Positions 513-2,716 of a DNA stretch of 10,994 nucleotides are shown piece after piece. The notes below the pieces were generated by a model. That model was not told where the DNA came from. It did no database searches and saw nothing but the letters and a program-made list of their open reading frames with translations. This stretch comes from a virus, in the IMG/VR virus record IMGVR_UViG_3300031669_007558, one strand, 5' to 3'. Position 1 is the first letter of the stretch; every line of letters begins with the position of its first letter. Both the position numbers and the translations under genes were made by a program.

Positions 513-1541
513 ATGGCTTTATCAGAATTAGAAGCATTCAAAGAAATGCTTAGTACGCTTGAAATCCATATCAATGGAACTCTTACTTTTAATTTAAAGG
601 ACTCTTCTGTTCAACAACCTGTTGAACCACCTATCGAAACGGAACCATCAACTGGTCCACCTGATCCAGAACCAACAAATAAAACTACGGTCTGGACGCA
701 GGACTTTAAAAACACACCTATTCAATCTCCATATAGTAAAGATCAAATTAAACAAGATTTTCCATGGGAAACTTATAAGAATGGTAGAAATTCTTATGTA
801 GATCCAAATGATTATGTTTCTATCATAGAAAAAGATGGTAAGAAAGTAATGAAAAACTCTTACGGTCCTGGTCATTGGGGAGTTGGATTGGCTTGGGAAA
901 CTGGAGGAAATGAAGGTAATGGGACTGGTGTAAACATTTATTCCGTTATGAGTAAAGATTCTGGATGGGACGAACTGTACCTTTCATATAATATCTTCTT
1001 TGAAGATGGTTTTGAATGGGGACTTGGTGGTAAAATGCCGGGATTCGCCTCTATTCCCGGTCCAACAGGGTTAGTTGGACCAAAAGAAGATGAAGGCACA
1101 TTTGCATTAATGATGTGGCAACCTGGAGGAAAAATGAAATATTATTGCTATTTCCACGAAGATTTTGAATATCAATATGGTCGTGGGCCAGTTATTCCAT
1201 CAGTTCTTCAAACCGGAAAGTGGACTAATATCACAATAAGACTTGTTCAATCAAGTCCTTGGGCAAAAGATGGACTTATGGAAATCTTTGTGGATGGTGT
1301 TTTAGATTTTACCTGGAATAATATTTCAACCAGAGAAAAAGAAGAAATTAAGTTAAGTGTAGTTACTTGGAATACTTTCCAAGGTGGTGGTGATTCATCA
1401 TACGCAACTCCAGGTGATTGTGCTGCACTAGTTAATGGAATTGAAGTATTTTATCTTACAGGAGATGATGTAGTAACTGGAAAAGTACCATCACCACCAG
1501 GAAGAGATATTACTGAATATTTGACATATTGGCCACAATAA
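513..1541 (+). CDS. Paralog 1 of a tandem pair: conserved N-terminal ~30-aa module, Pro-rich linker (PVEPPIETEPSTGPPDPEP), beta-rich C-terminal domain. Putative virion fibre, receptor-binding or glycan-active protein with a ConA-like jelly-roll domain (function unproven).
   Basis: 342-aa ORF. Alignable to the downstream 344-aa ORF at the N-terminus (LEI..GTLxFxxKD) and C-terminal domain (YLSYNIFFEDGF..GGKMPG versus YVSYNLFFPNGF..GGKLPG; GKWTNITIRLV..DGLMEIFVDGVL versus GAWHNVTLRMV..DGLCEVFIDGVL). Followed by a hairpin terminator. Confidence 0.85.
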   Translation: MALSELEAFKEMLSTLEIHINGTLTFNLKDSSVQQPVEPPIETEPSTGPPDPEPTNKTTVWTQDFKNTPIQSPYSKDQIKQDFPWETYKNGRNSYVDPNDYVSIIEKDGKKVMKNSYGPGHWGVGLAWETGGNEGNGTGVNIYSVMSKDSGWDELYLSYNIFFEDGFEWGLGGKMPGFASIPGPTGLVGPKEDEGTFALMMWQPGGKMKYYCYFHEDFEYQYGRGPVIPSVLQTGKWTNITIRLVQSSPWAKDGLMEIFVDGVLDFTWNNISTREKEEIKLSVVTWNTFQGGGDSSYATPGDCAALVNGIEVFYLTGDDVVTGKVPSPPGRDITEYLTYWPQ

Positions 1542-1543
1542 TA

Positions 1544-1575
1544 AAAAAGGGATTAATTTCCCTTTTTATTTTTAT
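1544..1575 (+). terminator. Intrinsic terminator hairpin after paralog 1
   Basis: AAAAAAGGGA-ttaatt-TCCCTTTTTA stem-loop followed by a T-rich run (ttatttttat). The A-tract upstream makes it potentially bidirectional. Confidence 0.6.
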
Positions 1576-1627
1576 AGATAAATAACTAAACTAAAATAAA
1601 ATTATATTTATGATGTAATATAAAAAA

Positions 1628-2662
1628 ATGGAAGCAAACGAATTTAAAAAAGCACTGGCTGAGGTGCTTGATTCACTTGAAATAAAAGTGAATTTATCTG
1701 GAACCCTCTCTTTTAGTATAAAAGATACTGACTTACCTCCAATTGATCCTTCAATTGTTGAACCACCAATTGATCCACCCGTGGATCCCCCCAATACAAA
1801 TATTAACGTAATTATTGAAAACAATTTCGAACATTATACACTAGGTAAGTGGAATATGGACGAAATAGCAGCAGATTTTTGGCAACATGATCCACGACTT
1901 ACAATGGGTGGAGCATATAACAACTTTGTAGACGTAGTAGATTTCAACGGAACAAAATGTCTACGAGCAAGAATGCCTTATAATGCTAATGGAACAATTT
2001 CCGGATTTGATATTTATAGTAGATTAGATCCTGAATTAAAATTAGAAGAAGTTTACGTTTCTTATAACCTTTTCTTTCCTAATGGTTTTAAAAGTGCTCA
2101 TGGAGGAAAACTTCCAGGCATGACTTCTTTGGGAATGCCAGGGCAAATATATGAGTATAACAATGATCCTTATAATCCGAGAAGTGGAAATCTTGTTGCC
2201 GGATTATACAAAGGTAATAATGGCCCAGACGAAATCAAGTGGTATAATTTCTTGAAATTTCCACCAACTAACCAAAGTCCTTGGGGACACATGTCTCCAG
2301 ATGGTCCTTATTGGACAAATACTTTTGGAAATGGTGCATGGCATAATGTAACTTTAAGAATGGTTCATTCTGAAGCATCAAAATATGATGGTCTTTGTGA
2401 AGTATTTATAGATGGAGTATTAAGCGATAGTTGGGGAGATATTTGTACACGTATTGAGCCGACCCAAGTGTGGGATGATTTAAGATTTCAACTTTTCACC
2501 AATAATTCTTCAGAACAAACAGATACTACAAATTATTATGTGTATATTGATAATCTTCTATTATTTAATTATGATGGAAATACAGATCCAGCTATACCAA
2601 AGGGGCGAGTAAAATCTCAACCTGGAAGAGTATTAAGTATACCAAATTGGCCTAAGATATAA
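1628..2662 (+). CDS. Paralog 2 of the tandem pair, same architecture as 513..1541 (N-terminal module, linker PPIDPSIVEPPIDPPVDPP, divergent beta-rich C-terminal domain)
   Basis: 344-aa ORF. Alignable to paralog 1 at the N-terminus and C-terminal domain. Followed by a homologous hairpin terminator. Confidence 0.85.
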   Translation: MEANEFKKALAEVLDSLEIKVNLSGTLSFSIKDTDLPPIDPSIVEPPIDPPVDPPNTNINVIIENNFEHYTLGKWNMDEIAADFWQHDPRLTMGGAYNNFVDVVDFNGTKCLRARMPYNANGTISGFDIYSRLDPELKLEEVYVSYNLFFPNGFKSAHGGKLPGMTSLGMPGQIYEYNNDPYNPRSGNLVAGLYKGNNGPDEIKWYNFLKFPPTNQSPWGHMSPDGPYWTNTFGNGAWHNVTLRMVHSEASKYDGLCEVFIDGVLSDSWGDICTRIEPTQVWDDLRFQLFTNNSSEQTDTTNYYVYIDNLLLFNYDGNTDPAIPKGRVKSQPGRVLSIPNWPKI

Positions 2663-2680
2663 TATTGGCCTAAGATATAA
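2645..2680 (+). repeat. Perfect 2 x 18 bp tandem duplication (attggcctaagatataat) spanning the stop codon of paralog 2
   Basis: aATTGGCCTAAGATATAAT ATTGGCCTAAGATATAAT read directly. The first copy encodes the C-terminal NWPKI and the stop. Confidence 0.8.
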
Positions 2681-2687
2681 TTAAACA

Positions 2688-2716
2688 AGAAGGGGATTAA
2701 TTTCCCCTTTATTTTT
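2688..2716 (+). terminator. Intrinsic terminator after paralog 2, same family as 1544..1575
   Basis: AAGGGGA-ttaatt-TCCCCTT stem followed by tatttttttctttc. The core GGGGAttaatTTCCCC parallels GGGAttaatTTCCC after paralog 1. Confidence 0.65.

Follow-up and report, generated by a model that had tools for sequence, protein, structure and literature searches.

Modular tailspikes and fibres, such as those of the Klebsiella and Acinetobacter capsule phages and of the K1/K5 coliphages, combine a conserved N-terminal anchor with exchangeable enzymatic heads. The classical tailspike depolymerases are usually trimeric β-helices, with anchors of at least 100 amino acids (aa). Chlorovirus PBCV-1 packages in its virion the protein A561L, which contains a wall-degrading domain (domain 4) resembling polysaccharide lyase (PL) family 14 (PMC8145301). 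In this study we describe two adjacent genes, A and B, carried by a 10,994-nt stretch of viral DNA (IMG/VR record IMGVR_UViG_3300031669_007558; ~35% G+C; hereafter the window), in which all plausible genes lie on the + strand. Each of them encodes a protein composed of (i) an N-terminal module of about 30 aa, of type N2 in A and of type N1 in B, (ii) a Pro-rich linker and (iii) a β-rich head of ~285 aa, predicted to adopt the PL14/PL36 β-jelly-roll fold. It is about evenly balanced, in our judgement, whether A and B are modular phage proteins that depolymerise or bind glycans, whose heads can be exchanged and whose N-terminal modules act as tags docking to a scaffold, probably the baseplate. 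What stands out in this locus and its relatives is the unusually small common tag, the existence of two tag types that travel paired, and PL14 heads devoid of an active-centre Arg.

As in modular receptor-binding depolymerases, the heads in the clade containing A and B are exchanged horizontally, several such genes are present per phage and, in some genomes, they have a baseplate neighbourhood. A and B differ from tailspikes in their candidate anchor, which has only ~30 aa and continues into a proline spacer, and in their heads, which are small jelly rolls (in a relative, a GH5-like barrel). The nearest viral analogues are the chlorovirus proteins vAL-1/A215L (3A0N, 3GNE, 3IM0) and A561L, which are likewise virus-encoded and carry a C-terminal PL14 jelly roll behind a non-catalytic N-terminus; A561L illustrates that a PL14-like domain can be a virion-borne tool. 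However, their host is a eukaryotic alga, their identity to A and B is ~20%, and they have no N1/N2 tag system. The N-terminus of A561L, a transmembrane segment with TolA-like and LEA-like domains, is unrelated to those of A and B, from which the Arg is missing. The nearest solved relatives (Foldseek E values of 1e-17 to 1e-14) are two alginate lyases, AkAly30 (5GMT) of a mollusc and the bacterial Aly36B (6KCV, 6KCW, 6KZK). They share with A and B the catalytic Lys within GGK(L/M)PG, the MW strand and the YxY strand but, unlike A and B, are secreted digestive or catabolic enzymes of cellular organisms, which keep the Arg (R128 and R169, respectively) and have neither an N-terminal tag nor a Pro-rich spacer. 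The dockerin enzymes of cellulosomes, in which a small tag and a Pro-rich linker occur on different carbohydrate-active domains, provide a functional analogy only; the N1/N2 tags (N-terminal, ~30 aa) have no sequence or structural relation to dockerins. No relevant paper came up in a full-text literature search that combined PL14 with phage and depolymerase.

BLASTP comparison revealed that the A and B proteins are paralogous (E = 3e-30, 27% identity over 363 columns). The heads alone are 31% identical and the N-terminal modules 45%, in good agreement with a first-pass annotation made from the sequence alone, which had described the heads as about one third identical and had recognized an alignable module of ~30 aa followed by a Pro-rich linker. 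The module reads MALSELEAFKEMLSTLEIHINGTLTFNLKD in A and MEANEFKKALAEVLDSLEIKVNLSGTLSFSIKD in B, and the linker PVEPPIETEPSTGPPDPEP and PPIDPSIVEPPIDPPVDPP, respectively. The head motifs quoted in that annotation were all found in both proteins: YLSYNIFF/YVSYNLFF, GGKMPG/GGKLPG, WTNITIRLV/WHNVTLRMV and DGLMEIFVDGVL/DGLCEVFIDGVL (A/B). For either head type, closer orthologs are encoded elsewhere among the phage contigs (A: 84% DNA identity to locus L004; B: 72% protein identity to protein P0012), and the sequence comparison therefore indicates that the paralogy is ancient and that the duplication was not a recent event. Inspection of the translations did not reveal a hydrophobic signal sequence in either protein, so that only two ways out of the infected cell would be available to them, on the virion or at lysis.

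Both heads matched the Pfam family PF21294 (Polysaccharide lyase 14, CAZy family PL14, of which PL36 is the sister family; bit-score cutoff 27), A with an E value of 6.2e-22 (78.8 bits) and B with 1.7e-9 (38.2 bits). When A alone was compared with PDB sequences, the Aplysia PL14 alginate lyase (5gmt, 7e-9) and 6kcw (7e-8) were detected, and a profile of 16 family members retrieved AkAly30 (5gmt, 6e-25), the PL36 enzyme Aly36B (6kcw/6kcv/6kzk, down to 3.5e-18) and chlorovirus vAL-1 (3a0n, 1.2e-12). The monomer model of A generated with AlphaFold2 (AF2) reached a pLDDT of 76.7 (pTM 0.77), and that of B a pLDDT of 71.4 (pTM 0.73). In Foldseek searches, the best match of the A model was 5gmt (E = 8e-17) and those of the B model were Aly36B, vAL-1 and AkAly30 (1e-14 to 1e-12), with target-normalised TM-scores of 0.65-0.76 for both models against PL14/PL36 structures (5gmt, 6kcw/6kzk, 3gne/3a0n). 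Next in rank for both models came the PL20 glucuronan lyase 2zzj, followed by ConA-like folds of a generic kind. The best matching predicted viral structures (BFVD) were chlorovirus proteins. On the basis of these profiles and models, the assignment of both heads to the PL14/PL36 β-jelly-roll family and fold is secure. The ConA-like jelly-roll or lyase fold anticipated in the first-pass annotation is thereby supported, with PL14 as the one of its named families to which the matches lead, and no unrelated cytoplasmic enzyme family emerged in its place.

Comparison of A and B with related loci and proteins (designated by L and P numbers, respectively) showed that head exchange has left the modules conserved, with identities of up to 89%. 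The identities of the two parts are strongly discordant: B and P0016 share 89% of the module and 28% of the head, B and P0013 36% and 78%, and A and P0003 19% and 72%. In the most extreme case, a GH5/DUF6298-like protein encoded in L010 (2862-4055), which bears an N2 tag, has 74% module identity to A and a common linker motif (PEPSTGP), and the fold of its head is unrelated. In total, four kinds of heads were found on N1/N2 modules, three of PL14 type (A, B and C) and one GH5-like. A C-type head in gene 1 is followed by an A-type head in gene 2 in L004-L007, in L008/L021 (gene 1 of L021 being cut at the contig end) and in L024 (gene 1 also cut at the contig end). In L009/L010 a C-type head precedes the GH5/DUF6298-like head, and in the window an A-type head precedes a B-type head.

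The consensus of the N1 module is MEAxxFKKALAEVLxSLEIKVxLSGTLSF and that of N2 is xLEAFKEMLSxLEIHINGTxTF; shorter variants, N3 and N4, are present in the single-gene loci L002 and L022. Adjacent N1 and N2 genes were identified in the window, L004-L007, L008 and L009/L010, and each pair with both N-termini readable consists of one N1 and one N2 gene, in reversed order in the window. The Pro-rich spacer is 19-45 aa long. In the monomer models, the module is predicted, with low confidence, to form a helix (residues ~3-16) and, as seen in B, a hairpin (17-21/27-31), after which the proline spacer is disordered. For both proteins pLDDT is low over the N-terminal region, which would fit a tag requiring a partner in order to fold.

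The boundary of the exchange is also visible at the DNA level. The segment 1559-1776 of the window, which comprises the upstream block of B, the module and the start of the linker, is 85% identical to nucleotides 8842-9055 of L009; in 60-nt windows the identity amounts to 93-98% between positions 1597 and 1716 and falls to ~45% from about nt 1720, i.e. within the linker. The 5′ part of A shows a comparable pattern of DNA identity with the GH5-like gene of L010, and segment 429-608 of the window is 76% identical to L009 9961-10126. The window and L009 also share tRNA-Leu, tRNA-Tyr and a signal recognition particle (SRP)-like RNA at 83-95% identity. These identities indicate that fairly close relatives have kept both tags and replaced both heads. 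Head-domain swapping, for which the first-pass annotation had advised comparing orthologous loci, is thus apparent from the discordant identities, the GH5-like head and the breakpoint at the linker. A hidden Markov model (HMM) of the N-terminal module matched no other open reading frame (ORF), and no structural protein, among the six-frame ORFs of L001-L010. Among 1.84 billion representative sequences the module profile, which has low sensitivity with its 31 positions, gave three real matches, all within the clade; a further match, P0018, was rejected as a spurious repeat protein.

In three related lineages, the pair is located in the neighbourhood of baseplate or neck genes. In L004-L007 it forms a + strand island between - strand operons, with gp25-like and gp6-like genes on one side and a 122-aa gene, a 697-704-aa gene and, at a greater distance, gp13 on the other. 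The structural proteins flanking the pair in L005 and L024 include ones of 120 aa (gp25-like), 255 aa and 638 aa (gp6-like). In L024/L025 the pair adjoins this same module (gp13 with the 122-aa gene, the large gene here encoding 771 aa), and in L029 a PL14 gene lies directly upstream of gp25, on the same strand. Genes for ankyrin-repeat proteins were also noted inside structural-gene modules, in L005 (4095-4775 and 19268-20707, - strand) and L008 (2939-3520).

Each gene of the pair is followed by a terminator-like hairpin (Table 1), and the two hairpins belong to one repeat family with 80% identity over 35 nt, which bears out the earlier claim of a terminator family common to both genes. The folding energy of the RNA is -11.0 kcal/mol (z -1.9) for the hairpin of A and -12.9 kcal/mol (z -2.9) for that of B. 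The terminators of A and B resemble each other, with the form GGG(G)ATTAATTTCCC(C), whereas the relatives share another one, GAGGAGC...GCTCCTC. A motif scan identified TATATAAAATA at position 474, 5′ of A, which resembles a T4 late promoter; such a motif, TATATAA, is present 5′ of A and, in L005, 5′ of the gp25-like gene and of both PL14 genes. The 3′ end of B contains a perfect tandem duplication of an 18-bp unit, ATTGGCCTAAGATATAAT, which preserves the reading frame and duplicates the final codons of B together with its stop (WPKI-stop, then YWPKI-stop). It was described correctly in the first-pass annotation as perfect and as spanning the stop codon of B, and its position (given there as 2645-2680) has been adjusted in Table 1. 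The duplication is also present in an independent assembly, L001 (99.96% identity over 5380 nt).

These observations are consistent with the following model. Each protein would consist of a helix plus β-hairpin module of ~30 aa, an extended Pro-rich spacer and a head of ~285 aa that binds or cleaves glycans, and each gene would be transcribed autonomously, having a conserved block upstream and an intrinsic terminator of its own. The N1/N2 module would serve as a docking or oligomerisation tag, holding the heads on a common scaffold, most likely in the baseplate region of the virion, or on each other; attachment to the virion is suggested by the conservation of the tag and by the baseplate and neck neighbourhoods in the relatives. 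The target of the heads would be an acidic polysaccharide on the surface of the host, itself probably one of the Bacteroidota; they would bind it and possibly cleave it by β-elimination through the conserved Lys and Tyr. Host range could then be changed by recombination that replaces the head but leaves in place the 5′ block (promoter, module and linker) and the 3′ end (NWPK motif and terminator). Recombination of this kind at the 3′ boundary has probably left two scars, the 18-bp duplication and the homogenisation of the terminators within the genome.

More tentatively, and with considerable reserve, it may be proposed that large phages of Bacteroidota possess in the N1/N2 modules a docking system that is portable and has not been described before, serving a cellulosome-like, plug-and-play display of enzymes. 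N1 and N2 would bind each other or two fixed sites of the baseplate, rigid proline spacers would display interchangeable carbohydrate-active heads on the particle, and retargeting would proceed by head swaps at the linker. Two other interpretations of the N-terminus were dropped: (i) a capsid-targeting or prohead-protease signal (it resembles the CTS of T4), because a lyase injected into the cytoplasm is implausible, and (ii) a cargo tag of encapsulin or vault type, proposed in view of a major vault protein (MVP)-like gene 5 kb downstream, because the loci with PL14 pairs in the relatives gave no MVP match.

When A was compared by tblastn with 50,697 GenBank phage records no match was obtained; the C-type protein P0015, compared with the same records, gave one, to ALY07032.1 of Vibrio phage vB_VmeM-32 (E = 3e-11). 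This phage belongs to the Straboviridae and has a 200-kb genome. Like A and B, its protein matches PF21294 (79 bits) and is encoded in a region of tRNAs and small ORFs with its own terminator. Unlike them, it has 522 aa, a signal-peptide-like N-terminus, an unrelated N-terminal region of ~300 aa and the canonical K/S-T-R/Y-V-Y residues. It is encoded at positions 5972-7540 of L026 (KU160494.1, 29169-30737) and is annotated as an uncharacterised hypothetical protein. Two further relatives with signal peptides, P0010 and P0011, had been considered as possibly cellular; this was not upheld, the contig of P0011 also containing small co-directional ORFs.

The active centre of the PL36 enzyme Aly36B is composed of Lys143 (acid/base), Arg169, Tyr185 and Tyr187 (PMC8286568). 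HMMER and MAFFT alignments were used to map these residues onto A and B. In AkAly30 the corresponding residues, mapped onto the 5gmt chain sequence, are K99, S126, R128, Y140 and Y142. The catalytic Lys of the GGK motif (K174 in A, K161 in B) and the first Tyr (Y211 and Y206) are kept in both proteins, and both residues are invariant in 16/16 family members. The second Tyr is kept in A (Y213) and replaced by F208 in B. The position of the Arg (R128 of AkAly30, R169 of Aly36B) is occupied by L199 in A and A191 in B, and that of the Ser two residues before it by F197 and L189, respectively. The C-type heads (P0014-P0016, L004:7951-8964 and the partial gene in L024) keep the full K/T/R/Y/Y set, and P0011 also retains the Arg. 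Within the A type, many residues on the cleft side, including M201, W202, Q203, Y211, Y213 and H215, are invariant in 10/10 sequences. Judging from these alignments, the catalytic competence and the substrate of A and B are uncertain, unlike their family and fold; the possibility arises that the Arg-less heads use a variant active centre, e.g. Lys/Tyr/His215 in the A type.

Several observations weigh against A and B being virion-docked depolymerases or binders. With Arg and Ser replaced in both proteins, and the second Tyr in B, their lyase activity may be altered or lost; because the PL14/PL36 active-centre Arg is lacking, the label "depolymerase" is insecure. Of the receptor-binding protein or depolymerase pattern recognized in the first-pass annotation, the conserved module with exchanged heads has been borne out, far more strongly than the window alone could reveal, while virion association and enzymatic activity are putative. 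P0010, P0011 and the Vibrio phage protein carry signal peptides, implying that a secreted, non-virion mode exists in the family. In at least four lineages (the window, L002, L008/L021, L009 and L022) the genes are surrounded by tRNAs and small ORFs. No virion gene is present in the window itself, where the neighbouring features are tRNAs, small ORFs, the SRP-like RNA and the MVP-like gene; the tail or baseplate neighbours that the annotation had recommended looking for were found in the three related lineages instead. Furthermore, the fold of the A and B monomers is unlike that of the classical trimeric β-helix tailspikes, PHROG families match neither protein (most neighbouring genes are likewise unmatched), and the T4-late-promoter-like motif offers weak support, since its count in the AT-rich window equals that expected by chance from base composition.

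Some of these points favour a role for A and B as soluble, non-virion enzymes, which we regard as possible, although well short of an even chance. Made late and released at lysis, they would strip capsule or extracellular polysaccharide (EPS) from neighbouring cells and debris, thereby freeing trapped progeny and exposing new hosts, and the tag would only oligomerise, producing a multi-headed enzyme through foldon-like homo- or hetero-oligomers. The genes of the window, L002, L008, L009 and L022 lie outside structural modules, as would morons with their own promoter-like block and terminator, the relatives with signal peptides indicate a soluble, exported mode, and the module is merely a helix and a hairpin of ~30 aa. 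Moreover, the PL14-like domain of A561L raised the infectivity of PBCV-1 virions, an effect which the authors credit to the removal of residual receptor (PMC8145301). On the other hand, the pair adjoins gp25/gp6-like baseplate and gp13 neck genes in three lineages, in one case directly 5′ of gp25 on the same strand, and the strong conservation of the module under head replacement is what a need to match an unchanging partner would produce. It is unlikely, in our opinion, that the heads are non-catalytic, lectin-like adhesins in which the PL14 fold has lost lyase activity and retains only glycan binding, in a role similar to that of Hoc or a fibre tip. Such a loss would account for the absence of Arg and Ser of the K-S-R-Y-Y set from both proteins, and of the second Tyr from B, when the C-type paralogs of sister phages keep all five residues; many lectins and receptor-binding domains of toxins with this fold also occur among the more distant Foldseek matches. 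It does not readily explain why all 16 sequences retain the catalytic Lys (GGK[LM]PG) and the first Tyr, nor the invariant cleft-side residues in 10/10 A-type sequences, which suggest an active site that is maintained and not decaying. Finally, it is very improbable that A and B are auxiliary metabolic genes, supplying extra alginate- or glucuronan-type lyases to boost polysaccharide catabolism of the host during infection. The closest solved relatives are indeed alginate and glucuronan lyases, Bacteroidota are polysaccharide degraders, and L009 encodes a CBM6 protein with a weak match to a type IX secretion system (T9SS) sorting domain. However, A and B lack a signal peptide, lipobox and T9SS C-terminal domain, and an extracellular or periplasmic polymer would therefore be out of their reach in a living cell; no uptake or downstream catabolic genes were found nearby, and rapid head swapping on a conserved tag is atypical of metabolic genes.

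If A and B are indeed modular, virion-docked glycan-targeting proteins, PL14-type jelly rolls would join a phage glycan-targeting repertoire now dominated by β-helix tailspikes, and would do so in large and huge Bacteroidota phages, whose host recognition is essentially unknown. A tag acting as a docking peptide would provide a compact, engineerable handle for the display of enzymes on phage particles, as well as a marker for receptor-binding or depolymerase genes in the genomes of uncultured phages. From the Arg-less centres, a specificity or mechanism new to PL14/PL36 could emerge. Should A and B prove to be ordinary soluble lyases, their identification would amount to routine annotation.

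Table 1. Features of the window discussed in the text.
Feature	Position	Strand	Description
tRNA Leu-UAG	99-184	+	
tRNA Tyr-GUA	333-414	+	95% identical in L009
Upstream block of gene A	429-512	+	AT-rich; conserved with the region 5′ of the N2-type gene of L009
Gene A	513-1541	+	342-aa ORF; N2-type module (residues 1-30), Pro-rich linker (~36-54), A-type PL14-like head, predicted β-jelly-roll (~55-342)
Terminator-like hairpin of gene A	1544-1567	+	core GGGATTAATTTCCC; AAAAAGGGATTAATTTCCCTTTTT then T-run; repeat family D3
Upstream block of gene B	1559-1627	+	putative promoter and 5′ leader; conserved with L009
Gene B	1628-2662	+	344-aa ORF; N1-type module (residues 1-33), Pro-rich linker (~37-55), B-type PL14-like head
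Perfect tandem duplication, 2x18 bp	2646-2681	+	TRF score 72, 100% matches; exact check
Terminator-like hairpin of gene B	2689-2710	+	core GGGGATTAATTTCCCC; GAAGGGGATTAATTTCCCCTTT then T-run; repeat family D3
Small SRP (4.5S) RNA-like element	2761-2837	+	RF00169, 36.6 bits, E = 7e-5, below the gathering score of 40
tRNA Leu-UAA	4004-4090	+	
15-nt tandem repeat	4253-4289	+	2.5 copies; within ORF 4104-4298
67-nt repeat	5398-5464, 7573-7639, 10114-10180	+	after the stop codons of three genes
Stretch without + strand ORF	~5700-6440	+	~0.75 kb; G+C 0.41-0.44 (0.30-0.36 around it); hairpin and U-run at its end (~6405-6436)
MVP-like gene	7675-10110	+	811 aa; MVP_shoulder 6.8e-28, Vault_3 1e-11, Band_7 7e-6
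Gene for a Gly/Tyr/Trp/Ser-rich protein	10201-10686	+	161 aa; clear signal peptide MKKLFLSLAMVVALLFAVNMESEAQ

The locus is viral, in accordance with the first-pass annotation. The close homologs of A and B are all metagenomic, and T4-type markers are present on the contigs that encode them, namely gp13 (neck), gp25 and gp6-like (baseplate wedge), T4_Y16D, RNA ligase and tRNA arrays (at least 11 tRNAs in L002 and ~13 in L009). The MVP-like protein of the window is 49-53% identical to ORFs of LR756500, LR756501 and LR756503, which are uncultured huge phages (462 kb, 735 kb). Huge phage genomes of the 462-/735-kb size class have been predicted to infect Bacteroidetes (PMC7162821), and gut phages are already known to encode MVPs (bioRxiv 10.1101/2023.11.10.566534). 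By these similarities, the source looks like a large T4-like or huge phage lineage, and its host is probably a member of the Bacteroidota, at which the CBM6 protein with a weak T9SS match in L009 also hints. The region of L009 that encodes it (60-5464) contains, in addition, genes for a glucosaminidase-like protein, an HD-domain protein and a 521-aa SPFH/flotillin protein.

A search for near-identical DNA among GenBank phages with the whole window gave only a match to a tRNA fragment. Scans of cellular genome contigs detected, with the A-type alignment, only distant homologs (up to 37% over short segments, in scattered taxa) and, with P0011, nothing; no donor lineage or prophage was identified in either of them. 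A scan of viral contigs with the MVP-like protein gave no match.

The SRP-like element, located downstream of B, contains CCGGAAGGUAGCAAGG, which resembles the GGAA loop of domain IV and the AGCA motif. Since L009 bears a homologous copy just 5′ of its PL14 gene (8780-8859; 31.9 bits, 87% DNA identity), the element is conserved in two phage contigs; its folding alone is insignificant (z about -1). A paper search yielded none in which SRP-RNA terms and phage terms occur in combination.

The G+C-richer stretch without a + strand ORF (Table 1) could correspond to a large non-coding RNA. It gave no Rfam match even at an E value of 10, its fold has a z of -1.4, and no homolog was present in the loci compared.

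The 67-nt repeat consists of TAACAA..TTAACAA, a G+C hairpin and a T-run, and represents a second genome-specific terminator family, distinct from that of A and B. Beyond its signal peptide, the 161-aa protein (Table 1) is rich in Gly, Tyr, Trp and Ser; it may be a small β-barrel or outer-membrane-like protein, and it matched no Pfam or PHROG family. The 15-nt tandem repeat encodes GEDEN repeats at the C-terminus of a 64-aa, membrane-anchored ORF product.

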